Assembly (NCBI GenBank): GCA_009995545.1
Contig: JAACPI010000005.1
Span: 28,244-92,243, forward strand
Direction of reading: 5' to 3'
Origin: a bacterium
Lineage (GTDB): Bacteria > Patescibacteriota > WWE3 > 2-01-FULL-39-13 > JAACPI01
Length of the DNA: 64,000 bases
This document shows, piece after piece, positions 4,790 through 41,042 of the stretch; the stretch's first letter is position 1; the number at the start of each line of letters is the position of its first letter. The notes beneath the pieces were generated by a model. That model had not been told where the DNA came from. It did not search any database and was given only the letters and a program-made list of their open reading frames with translations. The position numbers and the translations under genes were made by a program.

Positions 4790-5299
4790 CTATTTTGCTA
4801 ATTCTGTAGCTTGTTTTAATACCTGCTCCCTATTATCTTTTGTAACTTCCAATACCGTTACATCCTCTCTTCTTAATATTTCCTTAGTAAAGGAGTCCTC
4901 ATAAATCTTTGATATTGTCCCAAGAAAGGGGAGTCCACTATTCAAGTAGTTTTGCACAAAATCTTTAAACTTTCCGGAAAACAATTGCATTTGTCCGATT
5001 TCGTCAATATATAATAAATCGTTATCTGAATATTCTAAAAGTGACGGTAGCAAAGCATCCATTCCTTTCACTTCCACAAAATATCGGGACACCTTTAGGG
5101 GAGAAGTGTCAAAGTGAGTGCTCGCAATAATTGCTTCTTGCACTTTTGAAGTAACAATTTTAAAACCAGTTCGCTCACCCTTTTCTAAAATTTCTTCTGT
5201 AATAAATCCTGTCTTATTTGAAATATTATTCAATACTTTTCTTAGGATTGTTGTTTTACCACTACGAGGCAGGCCAGTTAATAAAATCTTCTTGTTCAT
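4790..5299 (-). CDS. THEP1-like nucleoside-triphosphatase (NTPase_1 family)
   Basis: Walker A LLTGLPRSGKTT at the N-terminus and Walker B LYIDEIGQMQLFS; the ~170-aa size is typical of THEP1. Confidence 0.55.
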   Translation of the reverse strand: MNKKILLTGLPRSGKTTILRKVLNNISNKTGFITEEILEKGERTGFKIVTSKVQEAIIASTHFDTSPLKVSRYFVEVKGMDALLPSLLEYSDNDLLYIDEIGQMQLFSGKFKDFVQNYLNSGLPFLGTISKIYEDSFTKEILRREDVTVLEVTKDNREQVLKQATELAK

Positions 5300-5457
5300 G
5301 TTGTTATTATAACAACCCTTCCCGGACTTCCCATAGTGGATCTATTTAGTAGCCAAAAAGTAGAATGGGATTTTAGTTTGTAAAGCATAGAAACAGTTTT
5401 TAGCGAAAGGATTATATATTCTGTTAAAGAATTCTAGATAATACTAAGAAATTTTAA

Positions 5458-5517
5458 GAGACGCACGAACACAACTTTTCTGCTTTTGCAGTTAAGTTGT
5501 GCTCGTGCACTCGTCTC
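5458..5517 (-). terminator. long imperfect inverted repeat (~19-bp stem) at the island border, likely intrinsic terminator of the minus-strand island operon
   Basis: GAGACGCACGAACACAACTT (5458-5477) pairs with AAGTTGTGCTCGTGCACTCGTCTC (5494-5517). The loop itself holds a mini-hairpin CTGCTTTTGCAG. It sits immediately 3' of the stop at 5519 and is followed on the minus strand by a T/A-rich run. Confidence 0.5.
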
Positions 5518-5518
5518 T

Positions 5519-6106
5519 CTAGATGTACGTTACGTTCCCGCCAAAGTTTCCTCCCGTGTGGTCAAAACTCTTACAGAAAACATTTCCGTTTACGTTCCCA
5601 CCAGTGATGCGAACTTCGTTTGCATTTCTGATGTTTCCGTTTACGTTCCCGCCGGATATCCAGACATTCTTGCCTTGGGCATCAATGTCGCTGTTGCGCA
5701 TACCACTCGTGATACGAAGGGTACCTGCAGATCCAGAGGGACTCACATTTTGCACAACCTGGGTGGTTACGGTTTGATAGGTGTGCGCGACTGTGCCACG
5801 TACGGGGGTTTCAGCAGCTCTTCTGGTGGGACTTATCTCAAGCTCAATAAGAGCTACTTGTCCACCAGGATTTGCTGTTGCCATAGCCCGAAGAAAATCT
5901 CTAAGTCTCCCTGTTTTTTCTGACCAGTCAATCAGGTGAAAAATCACCTCTGAAAGCTCTTGGCTGCCAGACAGGGATTCCAATTCCTCATTCATTAGTC
6001 TTAAAACCTGCGAAAGGTGTTGTCTGCTAACAAAACTAGCCATAATCACCTTTTGGAGCTTAAGAGCCGAGGCCAGAACCAGGTTATTCTCACTCTCAAG
6101 GAGCAA
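5519..6106 (-). CDS. hypothetical protein with N-terminal helical domain and C-terminal GGNVNGN beta-repeats (GC-rich island gene 2)
   Basis: 195-aa ORF at ~50% GC. The C-terminus carries a 17-residue periodic repeat ISGGNVNGNIRNANEVR / ITGGNVNGNVFCKSFDH / TGGNFGGNV suggesting a beta-helix or beta-roll. An internal Met (MASFVSRQ) is an alternative start. Confidence 0.45.
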   Translation of the reverse strand: MLLESENNLVLASALKLQKVIMASFVSRQHLSQVLRLMNEELESLSGSQELSEVIFHLIDWSEKTGRLRDFLRAMATANPGGQVALIELEISPTRRAAETPVRGTVAHTYQTVTTQVVQNVSPSGSAGTLRITSGMRNSDIDAQGKNVWISGGNVNGNIRNANEVRITGGNVNGNVFCKSFDHTGGNFGGNVTYI

Positions 6107-6137
6107 GATGATGGGATCGCCGACCGCAGGTGCCTGA

Positions 6138-6725
6138 CTACTGACGAAAGGTAGCGCCCTGAGGCTGACCTCCCTTCTCTATTTCGTCATCGAGCTGTTC
6201 CAGACGTACCGCATCCTCCTTGATCGCAGACAACTCCGTGTCCATCAAGGGTGGCTGAATTCCACGCATTCGAAGCTGCGCCAGACGACGAAGGTCCGTC
6301 TTGTCTTCTCCAATCTTGCGAGAACACTTAACGCATCTTCGCGCTCCGTACACAGCCTGTTTTGTGGAGCAGTAAGGACAAGATACTTCTTCGTAAAGCC
6401 TTTTGTCACAGTGCCCACACCTGTTGGCCGCTTTCATTTGCCCAGTCAACAACCCTTGACAGTGAGGACACTGATTCTCGGGGTCACTAACGGTCACTTG
6501 AATGGGGCTTCCATCAGCTTTCTCTGTTGCAAGAGGCTTCGGGCCATAGGTGTCCGCAAGCTTGCGGGCACTGCCTGCCTTGATCTTCATTGCAACATAT
6601 TGGTCGTAAGTAAAACCTGCCAAGTCGTCCTCGGAGGAAAGTTCTTCCTCTTTAAGAATTTCAATCGCAGCCGCACTTACGCCAAGATCTTCGAGCACTT
6701 TCTGAAATGGGGGCTTTGTAGCCAT
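6138..6725 (-). CDS. SAM-like domain plus double zinc-ribbon protein (GC-rich island gene 1)
   Basis: N-terminus LEDLGVSAAAIEILKEEELSSEDDLAGFTYDQYVAMKIKAGSARKL fits a sterile-alpha-motif-like helical bundle. Two CxxC...CxxC ribbons follow (CPHC..CGHC; CPYC..CVKC), then a C-terminal helix. About 50% GC against a 33% background. Confidence 0.5.
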   Translation of the reverse strand: MATKPPFQKVLEDLGVSAAAIEILKEEELSSEDDLAGFTYDQYVAMKIKAGSARKLADTYGPKPLATEKADGSPIQVTVSDPENQCPHCQGLLTGQMKAANRCGHCDKRLYEEVSCPYCSTKQAVYGARRCVKCSRKIGEDKTDLRRLAQLRMRGIQPPLMDTELSAIKEDAVRLEQLDDEIEKGGQPQGATFRQ

Positions 6726-6957
6726 GCTGCTACTTCCTTTCGGGGTGAATGAAAAAAAATGTAGAGAGACGATTCGATTACAACCCTTATATAGCGGTTA
6801 TATCCGAATTACTCTCTACAAGTTATTAGGTTTTAAAAGTGCATAAATAATACACAGGATTATAGTAAATTTGACGGAAAATGTAAAGACTATGGGACTA
6901 AAGGTTTGCGAAGTTAGATAAGACAGCCTTCACTGCATTTTTGAAAGAGTAAATTTA

Positions 6958-7032
6958 TGGCTCCGCGGGGAGGACTCGAACCTCCAACCTTAAAGTTAAC
7001 AGCTTTCTGCTCCACCATTGAGCTACCGCGGA
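6958..7032 (-). tRNA. tRNA-Asn (anticodon GTT), CCA encoded
   Basis: The minus strand reads TCCGCGG-TA-GCTCAATGGTGGAGC-A-GAAAG-CTGTTAA-CTTTA-AGGTT-GGAGGTTCGAGTCCTCC-CCGCGGA-G-CCA. It has a 7-bp acceptor, a T-loop GGTTCGAGTCC and an anticodon loop CUGUUAA, and is near-identical in layout to Bacillus tRNA-Asn. Confidence 0.85.
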
Positions 7033-7088: not shown

Positions 7089-8159
7089 CTAAAAGCTAAA
7101 AAAGTCTAAAAGTTTAGAAGCTAAAGAGGAACTAGTCGAAGAAATAACTTCACCAGTTTGAGCATCTAAATTTATTTGTTCGGCGACACTGACTCTAAAT
7201 AACCCCAACAGTTTTTCAATTTTTGTCCCTCTAACTTTGTACTCTAATTTAGAAACGGCTCCGTTTTCGTCGCCTGCACCAAGAACATCGATCTCCATAG
7301 AATCAACAGTAAACAGCTCTCTGTTAACATTTACTTTTTCTAAAATACTGTCTGGCATCGTTTTTAATAAAACCTGTCCTGAAGGAGTATCTACATAAAT
7401 ATCCCCTGTAACCTCATCTATTAAAATTGGGAAGTTGATGTGGGCGAGAGACCCCTTAGATTTGAGCTCGAAACCGTCACCCCGGCTTTCTATTTCTACC
7501 TCTTCTTCTTTTCCCTCAACCTCCCCTTCTTTTTCGACCTTTCTTGTAACGACCAAACTTCCATCTTCAGGGTTATATTTTAACCTACCTTCTTCGTCCC
7601 CAGACTTAACTTTTAAGTCTATTTTCCTACCCTCTTTTGTCGATAAAGATAGCTCAGAAAGCCTACTTCCCAAGTTTAACTTTTTTATAGAGCCAGAAAT
7701 ACTTTCGTTTGAACTTTCATTCTCGCTCTCTAATTTAACCTCGTCACTATTACTTTCTATTTTGGTCTCATTAATTTTAGTACCAAAGCTGTTGTATGTT
7801 TTAATTTCAACTTTTTCTTCGTCCCCGTTTATCTCTCTTTTTATTCTGGTTTGGCTACCGTCTGAATTTTTAATTGTTTCCTCAGTTTTAATTTCTTCCT
7901 TTTCTTTTTCATCTTCTTTTTCTCCATCTTTATCTTCTGTTTCTTTCTTTTCTTCCTCCTTTTTATCATCGTCCTTCTCTTCTTTTTCATCCTCTCTGTC
8001 CTCCTTCTCCCCCTCATCCTTGCTGTCATCTCCCAAAACAGACCCACGATTGAACCAACTAGAAAAAGAGAATGCCGTAACTAAGTGATTTGGGTATATC
8101 AAAAAAGCAGAAATTAGGAATACAAAAGAAATTATAGGTAGTGTTACTTTTTTAAGCAT
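7089..8159 (-). CDS. secreted protein with long acidic/basic (E/K/D) low-complexity linker
   Basis: Signal-peptide-like TM (LPIISFVFLISAFLIY), a ~130-residue EKED-rich region, then a structured C-terminal domain. Confidence 0.5.
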   Translation of the reverse strand: MLKKVTLPIISFVFLISAFLIYPNHLVTAFSFSSWFNRGSVLGDDSKDEGEKEDREDEKEEKDDDKKEEEKKETEDKDGEKEDEKEKEEIKTEETIKNSDGSQTRIKREINGDEEKVEIKTYNSFGTKINETKIESNSDEVKLESENESSNESISGSIKKLNLGSRLSELSLSTKEGRKIDLKVKSGDEEGRLKYNPEDGSLVVTRKVEKEGEVEGKEEEVEIESRGDGFELKSKGSLAHINFPILIDEVTGDIYVDTPSGQVLLKTMPDSILEKVNVNRELFTVDSMEIDVLGAGDENGAVSKLEYKVRGTKIEKLLGLFRVSVAEQINLDAQTGEVISSTSSSLASKLLDFFSF

Positions 8160-8216: not shown

Positions 8217-9140
8217 TCAAGTCTTTAAAACAGTAATATAGTACTTTGCCACGCCATCTTTTATTAAATTGGGCATTAAATAACCCGAAATTGCATTGTA
8301 AACAAATTCATTAGGTAAAACTTTTACTAAAGGTTTTGCCATATGAGGGTGTTTAAAAAGGTGTGAGGCTACTTTTTCTAACCGTTCCATATTGGGTACT
8401 ACGTATTTTGAAACATCTTCTTCTAACTCCATTTTAAATCTAGCTTCCATGGCCTTTTTAATAAAGCTAGAATACTTTTCGAAGCTATCTAACGCCATAC
8501 CTTTTTCAGTTAACTTACTAGCAGTAAGCTCAGTGTTTGATAATTGTTTATCACTTCTATAGCTATCTACCACAATAAAATAACCCCCTTTTTTTAAAAC
8601 CCTGTAAACCTCACTTAAAACTGTTTTTTTATCGGTAGAGTAACAAAGGGCCTCAACTACAAAGCAGACATCAAAAGAATTATTTTCAAAAGTGCTTAAG
8701 TCTTGGTAGGTTCCTTGTGAAGGAAAATAATTTTTAACCTTAGTTGCTTTTTTATAGGCGTAATAAAGTTGACCCTCTGAAAGATCTACTCCATAAAATT
8801 TAGTATTCGGATTTTTACGAGCCAAAAGAGAAGCATCAGCGCCCCTTCCAGTAGCTAGTTCTAAAACCCTACTGGCTTTGGTTCTTTTAACATACTTATT
8901 TACAAACAATGCTTGGGCTGTTAAATCATCTTTAGTGAAAACACCATTTCTAGTAATACCCAAATGCGCTAAATCCTCTTTTGAGTGAAACAGAGAGTAG
9001 GGTATTTGATTTATTTTATAATAACGTTGGATATAACCATCAGTAACTTTTATTGACGCTATTTTAGGTATCTCAAATATATTAGATATTTTGTCAATTT
9101 TTTCTGCAAGTGTAGGTTTCACCCAGGTATTATAAACCAA
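8217..9140 (-). CDS. class I SAM-dependent methyltransferase
   Basis: Motif I VLELATGRGADASLLA and post-I acidic D in YGVDLSEGQL; LKKGGYFIVVD matches motif III. Confidence 0.7.
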   Translation of the reverse strand: MVYNTWVKPTLAEKIDKISNIFEIPKIASIKVTDGYIQRYYKINQIPYSLFHSKEDLAHLGITRNGVFTKDDLTAQALFVNKYVKRTKASRVLELATGRGADASLLARKNPNTKFYGVDLSEGQLYYAYKKATKVKNYFPSQGTYQDLSTFENNSFDVCFVVEALCYSTDKKTVLSEVYRVLKKGGYFIVVDSYRSDKQLSNTELTASKLTEKGMALDSFEKYSSFIKKAMEARFKMELEEDVSKYVVPNMERLEKVASHLFKHPHMAKPLVKVLPNEFVYNAISGYLMPNLIKDGVAKYYITVLKT

Positions 9141-9196
9141 TAAACCCGATCTAGAACCTAGAAAAATCCGGCCCTAATAAATTTTAATTATAAAGA

Positions 9197-10807
9197 CTAC
9201 TTAACATCAAAAATATAGATACTTGGGGAAATAAACCTAACAAATTTAAAGTTGGAAAAAAGAGATATTTCGTCTGTAGAAATTTGACCATTGTTATTTC
9301 CATATTCATATCTTGTTACGTAAATCAGCTTTTCCATTCCATAACTTTTTTGATTTAAAATATTTTTAACCTCTTGAATATAGCTAGAGGGATAATTACC
9401 TTTAAACTTAATGCTTCTATATAAAAACCTTCTGCTATCAGTAATATCGGTGGAACCTCCCCTTCTGGACTGATAAAAAACATTTTCCTTAAAAGATTTG
9501 TTATCTGCTTGATAAATTAAAGTATCACCACCTAGAATATAAATCTTAGGTAAAGTTTCCTTGCCCAAACATTCTCTTAAAGGGTTATACACTGCGTAGT
9601 TGGTAACAATTAAGGACGATAAGTTGTTGAACTCAGAAACCTTGCTACAAAACTCCTTATTTTCTACGTGCAGATTGTAACTGGTTGCTGCGAAATTAAT
9701 GAAATTTAAGACAAAGAACAGAATTACAGCGGGCAATAACCACATTTTTACATTTTTTTTAAGACTAATAATCCCTTTAGCAATTGCAAACAATAAAGGT
9801 AATAAGAAGTAAATGTAGTGTCTGGGGTTTTTATCTCCAATATAGGATACTAAAACTAAGTAAACAATTAAACTAGAAGCAGAGTAAATATATAAATATC
9901 CCGGATTTAACTTTTTAAAATACCTATAAACTAGGTAAATAAACAGGAACAAAACCAAAGAATAGAAAGGTGCATTAGGAGGTATAAGTAGCAGAGAATT
10001 TATTCCGCCTAAAATATTAGGTTTAAAATCAAACACATAAGAACTGCCGCCGCCCATAAAAGTATCGTAGATCCCTTTCTTATATAAAAATAAAAATAAA
10101 GTTACTATAGAAGATAAAAATGTAGTCAGTAATACAAATACATTTTTTTGGTTTTTATACACGTATAATAAAAAAATAGCCACAGCAGCGGAAAAATAAA
10201 TAAATACAGAGGTAGGGTGTATTAATGAAAGCAATAAAGAAGATACAAAAAACAGAAAGTAATTTCTTTTAGTATTCTGTTCCCTTGATAATATTCTTAT
10301 AAAAAAGTATTGATAAAAAATTAAAAGCAAAAACATTAGCCCGTACATTCGAATATAAAAAGAGTAATAGTTTAAAAGGGGGGAGTAAGCAACTAAAAAG
10401 GTAAATGTTAAGGCACTATTCTTATTCTTAAAAACTAATTTTCCAAAAAAATAAGAAGAAACAACACATAAAATCCAAATTAAGTAATTAAAGGCTTTAG
10501 AAATTAAAATATAGTGAGGAGAATAGCTAAATATTTTTAAAATGTAGTAATAAAAGGGAAAATTGTGCTCGTTTTTTAGTGCCTCGGAAATATCGAAAAA
10601 AGACAAGCTGGCAATATTTAGAGTATTCGACTCGTCGTAACTAAAATTAGTAGACCTAATATAGCTAAAAAAGGCCAAATACAGAGCAATAACAAGTATC
10701 AAAAATAAATATATCCTGGGATAAAGGTTTTCGGATTTTTTGTCGTAGATGTAATTAAAATAAAGACCTTTTAAAGATTTAAAGAAAGCTTTTATACGAG
10801 AAGACAT
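9197..10807 (-). CDS. polytopic membrane glycosyltransferase, GT39/GT83-like (PMT/ArnT family)
   Basis: More than ten TM helices, a DE motif in the first extracytoplasmic loop (FSYDESNTLNIA) and a soluble C-terminal domain. It sits next to a methyltransferase. Confidence 0.4.
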   Translation of the reverse strand: MSSRIKAFFKSLKGLYFNYIYDKKSENLYPRIYLFLILVIALYLAFFSYIRSTNFSYDESNTLNIASLSFFDISEALKNEHNFPFYYYILKIFSYSPHYILISKAFNYLIWILCVVSSYFFGKLVFKNKNSALTFTFLVAYSPLLNYYSFYIRMYGLMFLLLIFYQYFFIRILSREQNTKRNYFLFFVSSLLLSLIHPTSVFIYFSAAVAIFLLYVYKNQKNVFVLLTTFLSSIVTLFLFLYKKGIYDTFMGGGSSYVFDFKPNILGGINSLLLIPPNAPFYSLVLFLFIYLVYRYFKKLNPGYLYIYSASSLIVYLVLVSYIGDKNPRHYIYFLLPLLFAIAKGIISLKKNVKMWLLPAVILFFVLNFINFAATSYNLHVENKEFCSKVSEFNNLSSLIVTNYAVYNPLRECLGKETLPKIYILGGDTLIYQADNKSFKENVFYQSRRGGSTDITDSRRFLYRSIKFKGNYPSSYIQEVKNILNQKSYGMEKLIYVTRYEYGNNNGQISTDEISLFSNFKFVRFISPSIYIFDVK

Positions 10808-36707: not shown

Positions 36708-37859
36708 ATGTTTAAAACTTTTTCCAAGATACATCTGTCTATAATATCTTTCTTTCTTATTAAGATAAGTTATTTATTAAAATTTTTTAAGTTAGGAAAT
36801 GGCTCTACTCTTCCGGGGCTTTTACTTCAAAAGTTACCTTTAAATTATCTTTCTATCTACTTTAAATATTTTGATTCTAAATACATATTTATAACTGGGA
36901 CTAACGGAAAAACTAGCACAACAGCTTTACTGAATCAGTTACTTTTGGAATCTGGGTACACAGTACTGTCTAATTTAACTGGGTCAAATCTAAAAAGAGG
37001 TATTCTTAGCGCTTTTAGTTTAGGTTTTAATAGTTATAAAAGACATAGCCCTAACTTTTGTGTGTTTGAAGTCGACGAGGCTAGTGTTCCAGGGATTATA
37101 GAAAGTTTTCCAAAAGACAAAGTTTTTAGCTTATTAGTTCTTAATCTTTCCAGAGACCAGTTAGATCGTTACGGAGAGATAGATATTTTAGTAGATAAAA
37201 TTAACGATAGCTTTAAAGACTTTATTAAATATAATTTATTTCTAAAAAAAGATAACTACACTGCAAATTTTAATGAACCCTACTTTCTAGCTAATAAAGA
37301 CTCTGGTGAGTTTAAAAAAGCATGTGTAAAGTTAAGACTTCTTACAAAGGATCATTTGATAGAAAATTTTAGCTTTATATTCACCCTTTTAAAGGAGCTA
37401 AAAGTATTTGTTAATTACGAAAAAATTACCCCCTTTAAGCAAGTCCCCGGCAGGGGTAATAATTATTATTTTAATGGTGTAAAAGTTAATCTTAATTTAA
37501 CAAAAAATCCTGCTAGTTTTAATATTAATCTAAAACAACTGCCCGTAGAAAGTGAAAATATTTTAATTTATATGAACGATAATATACCCGACGGACACGA
37601 TGTCAGCTGGTTTTACGATATAGACTATGAACTATTAAAAGAAGCTTTAAAGGGTAAGAATACTTATGTTGCCGGCTCTAGATCTACAGACTTTTTTAAT
37701 TTACTAAATATCTTAGGTATACCCGCATTTAATTATAGTAATCTAAACAATACCTTATTGTTTTGTAGTAGCTGGGGTTTTAAGGATCTATATATACTAT
37801 CTAACTATTCTGCAACTAGACATCTAGTAAAAGAATTTGCAGAAAATAAAAATGTATAA
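36708..37859 (+). CDS. murT: Mur-ligase-family protein, MurT-like (lipid II isoglutamine synthase ligase subunit)
   Basis: Mur ligase P-loop ITGTNGKTSTTALL. It is immediately followed, and overlapped, by a CobB/CobQ-type glutamine amidotransferase gene, the MurT-GatD arrangement known from Staphylococcus. Confidence 0.55.
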   Translation: MFKTFSKIHLSIISFFLIKISYLLKFFKLGNGSTLPGLLLQKLPLNYLSIYFKYFDSKYIFITGTNGKTSTTALLNQLLLESGYTVLSNLTGSNLKRGILSAFSLGFNSYKRHSPNFCVFEVDEASVPGIIESFPKDKVFSLLVLNLSRDQLDRYGEIDILVDKINDSFKDFIKYNLFLKKDNYTANFNEPYFLANKDSGEFKKACVKLRLLTKDHLIENFSFIFTLLKELKVFVNYEKITPFKQVPGRGNNYYFNGVKVNLNLTKNPASFNINLKQLPVESENILIYMNDNIPDGHDVSWFYDIDYELLKEALKGKNTYVAGSRSTDFFNLLNILGIPAFNYSNLNNTLLFCSSWGFKDLYILSNYSATRHLVKEFAENKNV

Positions 37860-38574
37860 AATAGCCCATCTTTACCCAAAAGAGTTAAATTTGTATGGGG
37901 ATAAAGGTAATATCTTGTATCTAACCTATTTTTTAAATCAAATTGGGATAAAAAGTGAGGTGACTGATATTGGTTTAAAAACTAATATCACCGAGGATTT
38001 TGACTTTATTTTTTCTGGAGGGGGCCCGGACTCTCTACAAAATCTAGTTTATAAAGATTTTTTAACTAAAAAAGATTTTTTAATAAAACATATAGAAATG
38101 AACAAACCCTCTGTTTTTGTTTGTGGATCTTTTCAACTACTTGGTAAATATTATTTAAATTCAAAAAACGAAAAAGTTCCTGGACTTGGTATTTTTAATT
38201 TTTATACTCAGTCCCCTTTAAATCAAAACAAGAGAATTGTTGGTAATACTTACTTTAAATTTAAAGAATCTTTTTTTGGAAATACAGTTGTCGGGTTTGA
38301 AAACCACAATGGGAGGACCTATTTAGAAGATAAACTTACACCTCTAGGAGAATCCTTTTCAAAGGATTCCGGAAACAATGATTTCGATAAAGGTGAAGGT
38401 TTACTTTATAAAAAAACTTTAGGTACCTACTTGCACGGCCCTTTATTTGTAAAAAATCCGAATATTTTAGAATTTTTGCTTAAAGATCTTTTTATAAGGC
38501 AAAAAAATCTAGATTTAAAAACTTTTTATCCCGAATTTGTCGCTCATCAAAATGTACTTAACAAAAAATTTTAA
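37837..38574 (+). CDS. gatD: glutamine amidotransferase GatD-like (CobB/CobQ-type GATase)
   Basis: FSGGGPDS nucleophile-elbow region, catalytic Cys in VFVCGSFQLLG, and a His near the C-terminus (YLHGP). Confidence 0.55.
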   Translation: MQKIKMYKIAHLYPKELNLYGDKGNILYLTYFLNQIGIKSEVTDIGLKTNITEDFDFIFSGGGPDSLQNLVYKDFLTKKDFLIKHIEMNKPSVFVCGSFQLLGKYYLNSKNEKVPGLGIFNFYTQSPLNQNKRIVGNTYFKFKESFFGNTVVGFENHNGRTYLEDKLTPLGESFSKDSGNNDFDKGEGLLYKKTLGTYLHGPLFVKNPNILEFLLKDLFIRQKNLDLKTFYPEFVAHQNVLNKKF

Positions 38575-39733
38575 AACTAAATTACCTAACATTTACTTTG
38601 GTTTAATACTTTTAAATTCCTCAGTTAGTTTTATATTACCAAATAGTTATGTTAGAGGGGTTTTAGTGGATTACCTTATTTTTAGAGTTTACTTAAATCA
38701 AATATTTATCTTTTTCTTAATTATTTTTTACTATAAATATTTAGTAGTTTATAAAAAAGAAATATTAACTTCTCTTGTTGTATTGGGTTTTTTTATTTTA
38801 GTATCTAATAACCCCTCAATTACTCTCTTGTACATTTTAAGAAGAATTATATACATTCCTTTTTTGTTTCTTTTATTCAGACTTAAAGAGTTTAAACCCT
38901 CTTTTAAATTTCTAATTTCTTTAAATATTCTTTACTTAACGGTTTTAGTACTGCAGTTTTTATTTAATTCCAATATTTTTTCTTATTTCCCTTTCGGGTT
39001 TTATCCTTTTCACGGAGTTGGGGTTAGACTAGACTACCTATCTTGGTTTGGTATTAAAAGAGTAATTCCTTTAGGTAATTTTCCTCATCCAAATGTCTTT
39101 GCGGCTTTTTTAAGTCTATTAAATACTGCTTACTTATCTCTATTTTTTAAATCTAAAAATAAAAATAATAACTACATTTTAATTTTATTTATATTTAATA
39201 TAACTGCCTGTCTCCTACTAGGATCCCTAACTGCCCTTTTATTTAATTTTCTTTTAGTTACCTACTTTTTATATATAAATAATAAATTTAAAATACTACC
39301 TTTTATACTGATTTTTATTTCTTTATTTTATATTTCTTATTTAGGGTCCTTTAAGATCACCTCTGTAAATTCTCGAGTAGATCAAATTAAGAGTGGTTAT
39401 TATTTGATTAAAAAAGCTCCTATTATTGGGGTTGGTGTAGGTAACTATATTCCTAGTATTTTAGAATATGAAAATTTTATAGGGGGAATATCTGATCTTC
39501 AACCTGTGCATAATATCTTTATTTTGTATTTTGTAGAGACAGGTTTTTTTGGATTAATTACCCTTCTATATTACTTATTTAAGTACAAAAATTTTTTAAA
39601 ATTGACTCCTTTTTTGCTTTTTATTATAGTTTTTAGTGCCTCAGACCATTTTTTGATTACTTTAAATCAAGGTTTGTTAATGCTTACATTGACTATATTT
39701 ATGCATAAATCTATCATTAAAGAAGATGCCTAA
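38537..39733 (+). CDS. O-antigen-ligase-like (Wzy_C) polytopic membrane protein
   Basis: About 10 TM helices and a central loop with VHNIFILYFVETGFFGL resembling the Wzy_C/WaaL motif. Confidence 0.4.
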   Translation: MSLIKMYLTKNFKTKLPNIYFGLILLNSSVSFILPNSYVRGVLVDYLIFRVYLNQIFIFFLIIFYYKYLVVYKKEILTSLVVLGFFILVSNNPSITLLYILRRIIYIPFLFLLFRLKEFKPSFKFLISLNILYLTVLVLQFLFNSNIFSYFPFGFYPFHGVGVRLDYLSWFGIKRVIPLGNFPHPNVFAAFLSLLNTAYLSLFFKSKNKNNNYILILFIFNITACLLLGSLTALLFNFLLVTYFLYINNKFKILPFILIFISLFYISYLGSFKITSVNSRVDQIKSGYYLIKKAPIIGVGVGNYIPSILEYENFIGGISDLQPVHNIFILYFVETGFFGLITLLYYLFKYKNFLKLTPFLLFIIVFSASDHFLITLNQGLLMLTLTIFMHKSIIKEDA

Positions 39734-41042
39734 TAAAATTACCTCAGTAGCTCTACTACTATTATCCTCATTTGTGCTTGGTGGGTGCAGTGTTTTAGGT
39801 TTTCATATCCCTTTTACTAGCAAAGATTCAGATACAGTTAAAACACCTAGCGAGCCTATTACTCTTACTTACTGGTCTTTGTTTGAGCCTTATGAGGTCT
39901 ACCAACCTTTAATTGAGGAATATCAGCAACAAAACCCTAATGTTACTATAAAATTCGAGCAGCGGAATTTTGATAACCTGTACACTTATAAAGATAGTCT
40001 TTTAGCAACTCTACAAACAGGTTCTAATAGTCCGGATATAGTGAGAATTCATGTGACTTGGCTACCTCTTTTTCAGAACAGCTTATCTCCTGCTCCCAGC
40101 AGTATAATTAGTTTTGATGAGTATTCTGCAGATTTTTATAACACAGCTGTTGAAAATACTATATTAAATGGAAAAATTTATGCTGTTCCCTTAATGTTCG
40201 ATTCCTTATCCTTATTTTATAACAAGGATATTTTTGCTCAGAAAAATTTAAATCCACCAACTACTTGGTCAGACTTTTTAGATACCTCCGTAAATTTAAC
40301 TGTTTCTAATTCCGGTCAAATATCTCAGTCGGGGGCTGCTTTTGGTTCTGCAGAAAATGTAGCATTTTTTTCGGATATAATCGGTTTGTTGTTACGACAG
40401 AGTAATATACAGCTTCCTAAAGACTTTAAATCACCAGCATTTAGAGACACTATTTTATTTTATACAAACTTTGTTAAGGAGTCTGGTGTTTGGAATCGAG
40501 AGCAAGCCTACTCACCTTTAGCTTTTTCTCAAGGGCGTACTGCTATGATGTTTGGAACTAGTTGGTCTCTTTTAGATATTTTACAAAAGACACCTAACCT
40601 AAAAGTTGGTGTTGCGCCAGTTCCTCAAGTTGTTTCTGACTCTAAACTTACAGAAATAAATTACTCTACTTATTGGGTAGAAAGCGTAGCTAGCTCCTCT
40701 AAAAATAAAGAAGAATCCTGGAAATTTATAAAATGGTTATCTCAGCCCGAGCAATTGCGAAAAGTTTATTCTAAGGCTTCTGATACTAGAACCTTTGGAG
40801 AGCCTTATCCTAGAGTATCTATGCAAGGTGAGTTAGTTAGCAACCCTTACCTTTCACCCTTTTTCGTTTACGCTCAAAATTCAGATACTATGCCTATTTC
40901 GGATAGATCCGGAAACAATAATTATGTGGATATTTTTAAAAATATTGTTGAGGGAGTGTTAAATGGCGGAGACCTAGATTCTTTAATAGATACTGCCGAA
41001 AAAGAATATAACCGGGTCTCTGGTTTTGTTCCTACCAACTAA
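39726..41042 (+). CDS. ABC-transporter extracellular solute-binding lipoprotein (family 1, sugar-type)
   Basis: Lipobox LGGC at residues 18-21; the mature domain has SBP_bac_1-like segments (IYAVPLMFDSLSLFYNKDIF). Confidence 0.55.
   Translation: MPNKITSVALLLLSSFVLGGCSVLGFHIPFTSKDSDTVKTPSEPITLTYWSLFEPYEVYQPLIEEYQQQNPNVTIKFEQRNFDNLYTYKDSLLATLQTGSNSPDIVRIHVTWLPLFQNSLSPAPSSIISFDEYSADFYNTAVENTILNGKIYAVPLMFDSLSLFYNKDIFAQKNLNPPTTWSDFLDTSVNLTVSNSGQISQSGAAFGSAENVAFFSDIIGLLLRQSNIQLPKDFKSPAFRDTILFYTNFVKESGVWNREQAYSPLAFSQGRTAMMFGTSWSLLDILQKTPNLKVGVAPVPQVVSDSKLTEINYSTYWVESVASSSKNKEESWKFIKWLSQPEQLRKVYSKASDTRTFGEPYPRVSMQGELVSNPYLSPFFVYAQNSDTMPISDRSGNNNYVDIFKNIVEGVLNGGDLDSLIDTAEKEYNRVSGFVPTN

Follow-up and report, generated by a model that had tools for sequence, protein, structure and literature searches.

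Layout and composition of the locus

We analysed a 64,000-nucleotide stretch of contig JAACPI010000005.1 (assembly GCA_009995545.1, a WWE3 genome of the Patescibacteriota), referred to below as the window. The analysis concerns a short GC-rich island at positions 5458-6772, which carries two genes on the minus strand: gene 1 (6138-6725) and gene 2 (5519-6106), each encoding 195 amino acids. An earlier note, based on the letters of the sequence, had pointed here to a 1.3-kb segment of about 50% GC in AT-rich surroundings with two co-oriented genes separated by 31 nt. Both open reading frames (ORFs) are found as described, but the 31-nt gap requires TTG 6106 as the start of gene 2; in public gene calls the start is ATG 6043 (174 aa, with AAGGTGA ahead) or ATG 5995 (158 aa). 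Since the match of gene 2 to Effector-associated domain 1 (EAD1, see below) begins at residue 16 of the 195-aa form, the early start is favoured. Gene 1 is preceded by a candidate ribosome-binding site, AAGGAAG.

The island differs in composition from the DNA around it. In sliding windows of 300 nt the GC content is 0.47-0.53 between 5550 and 6750 against about 0.33 on either side, and none of the 1-kb bins of the window outside the island exceeds 0.44. Following the locus in the direction of transcription, GC amounts to 0.31 in the spacer between tRNA and island (6773-6957), 0.43 in the stretch before gene 1 (6726-6772), 0.52 in gene 1, 0.53 in the intergenic stretch, 0.48 in gene 2 as well as in the hairpin behind it, 0.30 in the 158-nt spacer between hairpin and NTPase (5300-5457) and 0.34 in the NTPase gene. 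At third codon positions (GC3) gene 1 reaches 0.51 (z = 5.2) and gene 2 0.45 (z = 3.8), whereas the 46 other genes of the window lie at 0.29±0.04 and do not exceed 0.37. By tetranucleotide distance from the average of the window, too, 5401-6600 (1.2 kb, z = 5.7) stands furthest out. Windowed GC, GC3 and tetranucleotide profiles are thus all outlying, which bears out the compositional claim of the earlier note. The opposite strand of 5500-6750 contains antisense ORFs of 45-145 aa, the longest (145 aa) at 5486-5923 (+); we rejected these as genes because they are an expected by-product of the high GC content, with its few stop codons.

Upstream lies an intact tRNA-Asn(GTT) gene (6958-7032, minus strand; ARAGORN, Rfam tRNA 65.4 bits), the 3' end of which faces the island, as had been noted before. 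It is separated from the GC-rich block by 185 nt of host-like AT-rich DNA, and is a host gene that bounds a variable interval upstream and stands outside the cassette. This AT-rich spacer holds a candidate sigma-70-like promoter, TTTACA-17-TATAAT (6859-6887, minus strand), put forward on a consensus match of 11 out of 12 positions. Downstream the cassette is closed by a long imperfect hairpin (5456-5519, minus strand), followed by TTAAAATTTCTT. Its folding energy of -38.9 kcal/mol compares with -17.9±3.1 for shuffled sequences (z = -6.7) and was reached by none of 200 shuffles. The hairpin described in the earlier note is present. It is probably the operon terminator; a reading as integron attC site was rejected, as inspection did not match the R''/R' core sites (RYYYAAC...GTTRRRY). 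Overall, the layout is that of an operon, with a single promoter-like site upstream, tight gene spacing and a single strong hairpin downstream. The next gene beyond the hairpin (4790-5299) encodes an NTPase of the NTPase_1/THEP1 type (Pfam 127.7 bits), confirming what had been read at this position. The genes flanking the island encode this NTPase, a 219-aa protein, an ASCH protein, a 356-aa acidic protein and a methyltransferase.

Gene 2 joins an EAD1 to a predicted beta-helix

Gene 2 consists of an EAD1, a linker and a C-terminal repeat region. The EAD1 (Pfam PF19955) covers residues 16-83 (5858-6061, minus strand) and scores 37.4 bits (E 3.5e-9) against a cutoff of 24.2. The helical adaptor domain of the kind used in NTP-dependent conflict systems, which had been suspected at this locus, is therefore present in gene 2. 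The same match shows that the absence of any placeable similarity, claimed earlier for both genes, does not hold for gene 2.

The C-terminal region (residues ~129-195; 5522-5722, minus strand) is modelled as a small right-handed beta-helix with GGNVNGN-type turns, resembling bactofilins and the C-domain of MinC. In Foldseek the AF2 model (built without alignments, as was that of gene 1) ranks the MinC C-domain on top (E 8e-4), and it superposes on bactofilins with 1.4-1.8 A across 64-65 residues. Together these comparisons indicate a triangular, bactofilin-like beta-helix of 3-4 turns. The corresponding match to Pfam Bactofilin (PF04519) reaches 17.2 bits, below the cutoff of 27.9. In the DNA the Gly/Asn repeats stand at 5530, 5590 and 5641; the spacings of 60 and 51 nt correspond to periods of 20 and 17 aa, so that the Gly/Asn beta-repeat proposed before is retained while its strict 17-residue period is not. 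Word-indexed searches of gene 2 against 5.8 billion proteins returned self-matches only, even at E <= 10, and a comparison of its beta-helix with the C-terminus of P0008 (P and L numbers are our handles for proteins and loci) was not significant (E 0.37).

Gene 1 and its family

Gene 1 encodes a SAM/HhH-like N-terminal domain (residues ~6-62; 6540-6710, minus strand; delimited by phmmer and alignment), two C4 zinc ribbons of the form CxxC...CxxC (residues 86-134; 6324-6470, minus strand), two C-terminal helices and a GG...TFR tail. No model in Pfam, NCBIfam, PADLOC or PHROGs scores above cutoff. The cysteines follow the pattern CPHC-x13-CGHC + CPYC-x11-CVKC, and the matches to Zn_ribbon_6/DZR stay below threshold in gene 1 but exceed the cutoff in its homolog P0012.

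A word-indexed search of gene 1 against 5.8 billion clusters yielded the self-match only, whereas exhaustive phmmer against 1.84 billion representatives yielded 16 proteins at E <= 1e-3. Three of these have the whole architecture: P0003, the closest homolog (42% identity over residues 7-187), P0004 (44% over ribbons and C-terminus) and P0012 (32% over the full length). All eight cysteines of gene 1 are kept in P0003 and P0004, which supports the two C4 ribbons read earlier from the sequence, and seven are invariant once the divergent P0012 is added. Gene 1 and the same-architecture homologs also have a C-terminal LD..IE.GG...FR motif in common. In the remaining phmmer proteins the similarity is confined to residues ~6-70 of gene 1, except for P0011 (717 aa, seven short low-identity stretches), which was left out of use.

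The N-domain, of some 60 residues, is well conserved (consensus L..AGVS.AAI..L.EQEL.T...L.GFTY.QF.AMGIKAGSA..LA..Y). It is present in at least 12 proteins and joined to at least three unrelated C-terminal regions. Its matches to SAM_2 (3 of 14 members) and SAM_1 (also 3 of 14) are sub-threshold, with a best E of 1.7e-4, and single matches to HHH_5 and RNA_pol_A_CTD are below cutoff as well. The SAM-like assignment made earlier receives tentative support from these sub-threshold matches. Scanning metagenomes with an alignment of the double zinc ribbon gave nothing; with an alignment of the N-domain two loci were obtained.

Recurrent partners of the gene-1 family

The genomic contexts of the family give the strongest clue to function. 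In the window the next downstream gene of gene 1 encodes the EAD1 protein. P0003 (locus L033) is followed, after an identical gap of 31 nt, by a 102-aa EAD7 protein (63.3 bits, cutoff 32). The tail of that protein, GNVQAGPGGIAVGGSVHGNIIVGN, ending GGSVHGNIIVGN, has a GGxVxGN motif as in gene 2. As this pairing persists at 42% protein identity with the spacing kept, selection on the pair is implied. P0012 (L035) overlaps a ThsB-like TIR gene (PADLOC 4.9e-10, Pfam TIR_2 6e-4), which together with a nucleoside 2-deoxyribosyltransferase-like gene behind it occupies L035:703-1685, after P0012. Two further links are found for the N-domain: P0013 is fused to an EAD11 (47.6 bits, cutoff 26), and the gene for P0007 (L052) has, two genes downstream, one for a protein with an EAD7 at its C-terminus (63.7 bits). 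That makes five independent links to EAD or TIR domains in about 12 contexts, which, as judged informally and not from a formal background, is far more than expected for domains this rare.

Directly downstream of N-domain proteins, regardless of their C-terminal family, we also found a family of small proteins (~90-150 aa, no Pfam match). Members are encoded at L047:1146-1601, L048:~9040-9348, L039:9172-9555, L038:4956-5234 and L037:4131-4493, with a probable member, assigned by its position, at L052:892-1272. This arrangement makes the small protein a constant partner and not one that confers cognate immunity. We rejected the idea that the wider N-domain family consists of toxin-immunity pairs or polymorphic toxins, given that the downstream protein is constant across C-terminal families.

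These partners also bear on whether the pair serves conflict at all. Gene 2 could be an acquired mini-bactofilin that is tethered by its zinc-ribbon/SAM-like partner and serves an episymbiont in shape, division or attachment. Its top structural matches are bactofilins and the MinC C-domain, the Pfam Bactofilin match exists below threshold, the cassette is fixed in the population and does not vary there, and SAM-like domains are common polymerisation modules. Nonetheless, EAD1 has so far been described only as a conflict-system adaptor, and the partners of the gene 1 homologs are EAD7 and TIR proteins, not bactofilins. Moreover, the predicted helix has ~64 residues (3-4 turns) against ~110 in bactofilins, and a sporadic, orphan-like distribution together with foreign composition is ill-suited to a core structural role. 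We consider such a cytoskeletal or cell-organisation pair rather improbable.

Acquisition of the cassette

Even the nearest genomes of the species-representative collection are far removed from this one (NTPase identity no higher than 53%); almost all of them are metagenome-assembled genomes (MAGs) of Patescibacteria. In one distant relative, L016 (44% identity in the NTPase), the end of tRNA-Asn and the start codon of the NTPase are only 52 nt apart, with nothing in between, which makes this junction an empty site. Two Saccharimonadales MAGs, L020 and L027, carry a different block of ~4 kb between the same two genes. The interval between tRNA-Asn and NTPase therefore represents an old linkage with variable content. 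The ~4-kb block is conserved between the two MAGs (L020:1025-5139, L027:3726-7997); by eye, it contains thymidylate-synthase-, GTP-cyclohydrolase-II-, OMP-decarboxylase- and guanylate-kinase-like genes and one for a small Cys-rich protein, and the NTPase itself has a Cys/His-rich extension of ~100 aa in both.

Within the population the cassette does not vary. It is present in 24 of the 24 read contigs with identical NTPase, among which there is no empty-site allele, and the contigs compared base by base show zero single-nucleotide polymorphisms (SNPs) within 5458-6725. The cassette is fixed in the sampled population, and owing to the lack of SNPs a dN/dS test of selection is impossible. The only variants seen near the island were a SNP at 6730, 5 nt upstream of the start codon of gene 1 (in L002, L005 and L008), an indel around 4745, on the downstream side of the NTPase gene, and what looks like an indel at ~6964, at the 3' end of the tRNA, in a single ENA contig (L008).

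Lateral acquisition of 5458-6772, also proposed in the earlier note, is supported by its foreign composition, the lack of close relatives in 5.8 billion clusters and the empty junction in L016. The route is less evident. The earlier note had seen the classic configuration of a tRNA-linked island and suggested looking for a partial direct repeat of the tRNA 3' end near 5300-5520. What defines such an island was not found. A search of the 64-kb window with the 25-nt tRNA 3' end at up to 3 mismatches recovered only the tRNA itself, the best local alignment of this end to 5250-5560 was 6 nt (below the shuffle mean), and Rfam at E <= 10 showed no tRNA fragment. Neither the island itself nor the DNA next to it carries a transposase, integrase or recombinase, and 185 nt of host-like spacer separate it from the tRNA.

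The related proposal that a tRNA-targeted integrative island would combine the two adaptors with the adjacent THEP1-like NTPase into an NTP-dependent defence module is largely refuted, and we hold it to be most improbable. It draws on the position of the island at the tRNA 3' end and of the NTPase immediately downstream. Against it stand the missing integrase and att repeat, the host-like GC of the NTPase gene (0.34), the hairpin terminator plus 158-nt spacer between it and the cassette, and its location next to tRNA-Asn in the cassette-free L016, to which L020 and L027 add the same linkage with other intervening genes; furthermore, its PADLOC matches are to generic P-loop models. The NTPase was excluded from the unit because of its native GC, its place beyond hairpin and spacer and its position beside tRNA-Asn in the island-free relative. 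It is a native neighbour, older at this site than the island, and not a component of the cassette.

Apart from composition, the ends of the island are marked by a suggestive inverted repeat. The upstream arm (6759-6772) reads TCGTCTCTCTAcAT on the minus strand; the downstream arm (5511-5524) overlaps the stop codon of gene 2 and the outer stem of the hairpin, which thus reuses the boundary-repeat sequence. The arms are complementary at 13 of 14 positions, contain the perfect 11-mer TCGTCTCTCTA and both coincide with the steps in GC. Among 5000 shuffles 41 produced an 11-mer inverted repeat linking the two boundary zones, and so did 19 of 1583 genomic control pairs; this was tested post hoc (p ~0.01). 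In addition, the 7-nt sequence CGTCTCT can be read as a direct copy at ~5459-5465, in the distal hairpin arm, and at 6765-6771.

Comparable cassettes are found around other N-domain genes. In L048, a contig of 995 kb with ~28% GC, the gene for P0009 and the small gene downstream of it form an island of 53-56% GC, and in L039 (host ~39% GC) the P0010 cassette has 58-61% GC. Together with L038 these cassettes are flanked by perfect inverted repeats of 13-14 nt with a near-identical sequence, ATAC[T/G]ATCAAT (L048:7758-9430, AATACTATCAATAC; L039:7806-9645, AATACTATCAATTT; L038:3693-5246, ATACGATCAATAC). The window cassette has a similar layout, but the repeat sequence is different. When L048 and L039 are compared, conservation runs ~60 nt outside the left repeat arm, leader hairpin included, so that this repeat could be regulatory rather than the end of an element.

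Two other features of these loci were recorded. Between the left arm and the start of the N-domain gene lies a conserved 5' leader hairpin, CTGACTGGCGGCAC ... GTGTCACCAGTCAG (L048:7790-7860, L039:~7830-7900), with no match in Rfam. Divergently from the cassette, both loci encode a protein of 657 or 659 aa (L048:5433-7406 and L039:5644-7623, both minus strand; 36% identical) with a weak Pol-beta nucleotidyltransferase match; it may be part of the N-domain cassette system.

These repeats raise the possibility that the two genes travel as cargo on a small mobile cassette that is non-autonomous, or form a moron derived from phage or plasmid; the short inverted repeats would mark the ends of an element that is mobilised in trans, and the genes would then serve the element itself through addiction, superinfection exclusion or anti-defence. 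Such an origin is compatible with the protein roles that we prefer below. The 11-14-nt inverted repeat exactly at both GC steps speaks for it, as do the 7-nt direct copy at the outer edges and the repeats bracketing the cassettes of L038, L039 and L048, two of which (L039 and L048) are GC-rich islands with 53-61% GC against ~39% and ~28%, respectively. P0012, moreover, stands beside DnaD-like and DnaC/IstB-like replication genes, and its contig looks like a phage or plasmid replication module, a mobile-element-like setting. However, no transposase, integrase or recombinase accompanies the island, the window repeat is unlike those of the other cassettes and its significance was assessed post hoc, the conservation past the left arm in L048 and L039 allows a regulatory role, and the population lacks an empty-site allele. 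Searches of phages (gene 1, tBLASTn) and plasmids (gene 2, tBLASTn) and two scans of viral contigs returned no match, on which grounds phage or plasmid origin was rejected. We judge it unlikely overall that the genes serve a mobile element, while giving the idea some weight.

A proposed minimal conflict cassette

Taking these results together, our preferred explanation is that 5458-6772 is a laterally acquired, minimal EAD-coupled conflict cassette of the immunity or abortive-infection type, working without a dedicated NTPase. We put this just short of an even chance. Gene 1 would be the constant scaffold or sensor, its SAM/HhH-like domain mediating self-association or nucleic-acid binding next to the two zinc ribbons and the helical tail. 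As the variable partner, gene 2 would act as a polymerising adaptor or effector. Its EAD1, a death-fold-like adaptor, may dock to a partner protein, and its bactofilin-like beta-helix may polymerise end to end. If both hold, activation would yield a filament or other higher-order assembly that is itself the effector or recruits one.

The evidence that carries this explanation is the foreign composition of the segment, the domain content of both proteins, the conservation of the gene-1 family and its repeated adjacency or fusion to EAD1, EAD7, EAD11 and TIR. Several results weigh against it. A second EAD1 was not found: in a Pfam scan of the 64 window ORFs only one, gene 2, matches this domain, and phmmer of both proteins against the six-frame translation of the window recovered only gene 2. 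Gene 1 and gene 2 are dissimilar in BLASTP (E >= 5.8), and by hhalign the N-domain profile of gene 1 shows no relation to EAD1 or EAD7 (probability 0.2%); a homotypic EAD in gene 1 was rejected on these two grounds. Since there is no second EAD1 and gene 1 is unrelated to EAD1 and EAD7, the homotypic partner by which EAD systems are defined is missing within 64 kb, the chief weak point of our explanation. Nor is there a STAND, vWA-MoxR or GAP1 core in or beside the island, a PADLOC family for either protein (PADLOC-DB 2.0, E <= 1) or an enzymatic effector in the cassette; NACHT/nSTAND matches among window ORFs are weak, sub-threshold and not tied to individual proteins. For gene 1 the AF2 model is of low quality (pLDDT 52) and matched no known fold significantly. 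Proteins with the architecture of gene 1 number only four, two of them on contigs shorter than 1.5 kb, and the neighbourhood statistics are thin for this reason. Finally, seven other N-domain contexts (L036-L039, L047, L048 and L050) have no recognisable conflict domain nearby.

That no EAD1 partner, core NTPase or enzymatic effector occurs within 64 kb would also fit a larger EAD-type system of which only an inert or decaying remnant is left here, the NTPase core and enzymatic effectors having stayed behind in the donor. This we find quite improbable: both ORFs are intact and come with candidate ribosome-binding sites, a promoter-like site and a terminator, the minimal pairing recurs in L033 at 42% protein identity with its spacing, and the cassette is identical in every sampled contig. 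Reduced genomes rarely keep junk.

The designation 'undescribed accessory system', used in the earlier note, is a reasonable label for the gene-1 family and for its pairing with an EAD protein. A much wider proposal is that the cassette belongs to an undescribed class of small GC-rich, inverted-repeat-bounded cassettes among ultra-small Patescibacteria-like genomes, in which a SAM-like hub is coupled to EAD1/EAD7/EAD11, TIR or beta-helix modules. Such a class would provide unicellular episymbionts with an NTPase-independent, signalosome-style immune or suicide pathway, possibly on a transposase-less mobile element. We offer this as speculation and think it distinctly unlikely in this full form.

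Other features of the window

The most AT-rich stretch of the window (38100-39900, GC 0.26) is also its second-largest tetranucleotide outlier (z 3.3) and overlaps the ORFs 37837-38574 and 38537-39733. The 356-aa acidic protein near the island (7089-8159, minus strand) has an N-terminal hydrophobic segment followed by a long low-complexity region rich in Glu, Lys and Asp, and belongs to no Pfam family; the strong strand skew of its gene creates a long antisense ORF at 7435-8088. Four window ORFs match T4SS_pilin, and genes for SmpB, SpoIID and DUF5657 lie just upstream of the island. These genes and the relatives of the NTPase fit a Patescibacteria/CPR origin with the standard genetic code.

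Comparison with known systems

According to Kaur et al. (2020, PMC7159879), EADs are small adaptor domains that use homotypic contacts to link effectors with the cores of NTP-dependent conflict systems, and EAD1, EAD6 and EAD7 are distantly interrelated. The same paper treats superstructure-forming, non-enzymatic repeats as a recognised class in effector position. EAD-coupled systems are reported to be enriched in multicellular prokaryotes (Kaur, Burroughs, Iyer & Aravind 2020, eLife 9:e52696; 2021, eLife 10:e70394). Here, an EAD1 protein occurs in a unicellular, host-dependent lineage of roughly the 1-Mb class and is paired only with a small zinc-ribbon/SAM-like protein. What is new is the constant partner family, the minimal architecture and the unexpected type of host, EAD-based conflict modules as such being known already; our literature search found nothing that connects EADs either to Patescibacteria or to bactofilin-like domains. 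Should the pairing be functional, it would represent a much simpler core for EAD signalling, add a new hub domain to the prokaryotic death-fold/TIR/SAM toolkit and offer a compact two-gene system for testing signal transmission by EADs and beta-helix polymerisation. Apart from function, the recurring inverted-repeat-bounded, GC-rich cassettes in AT-rich reduced genomes point to an unrecognised route of gene flow in Patescibacteria.

In several respects the cassette resembles the EAD-coupled conflict systems. Gene 2 carries a genuine EAD1, a constant component is combined with variable EAD- or TIR-bearing partners in neighbouring genes, a non-enzymatic module that is predicted to form superstructures would stand in effector position, and the distribution is sporadic and laterally mobile. 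The module in question would here be a bactofilin-like beta-helix; bactofilin is not mentioned in the text of Kaur et al. 2020. The differences are that the cassette has no vWA-MoxR, iSTAND, GAP1/DO-GTPase, STAND or Ubl core, that neither the partner nor the surrounding 64 kb holds another copy of this EAD, and that the host is a unicellular, ultra-small bacterium. A partner with SAM-like domain and double zinc ribbon is, moreover, absent from the components described in the text of both Kaur papers and one supplement.

The likeness to tRNA-linked integrative islands lies in foreign DNA beside a tRNA 3' end and an empty site in a (distant) relative; unlike these, the island measures only 1.3 kb and has a host-like spacer at the tRNA, no integrase and no duplicated tRNA 3' segment. 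With the NLR-associated amyloid signalling pairs (HET-s/NWD2; BASS, Dyrka et al. 2020, 10.1101/2020.01.06.895854) our pair has in common the short G/N-rich repeats of beta-solenoid type at the C-terminus of one member, and the motif in L033, at only ~1.5 turns, is similar in size to amyloid signalling motifs. Gene 1 and gene 2, however, have no motif in common and gene 1 contains no NB-ARC or NACHT domain; an amyloid-signalling pair was rejected for want of a shared motif and an NLR.

At the level of structure, the model of gene 2 shares with bactofilins (PF04519; BacA 2n3d, T. thermophilus 6ria) and the C-terminal beta-helix of MinC a right-handed triangular helix with turns of ~17-20 residues and glycines at the corners. 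It departs from bactofilins in having just 3-4 predicted turns, a score below the Pfam cutoff and a fusion to EAD1 in place of short disordered tails. A parallel can finally be drawn with the SAM hubs of eukaryotic death and immune signalling (SARM1, SAM-SAM-TIR) and with Thoeris ThsB, in that a SAM-like module is genetically coupled to EAD or TIR. In our case the SAM similarity is sub-threshold, the coupling to TIR is by gene adjacency instead of fusion, and no ThsA/SLOG-type partner is seen. The resemblance is an analogy and falls short of demonstrated homology.

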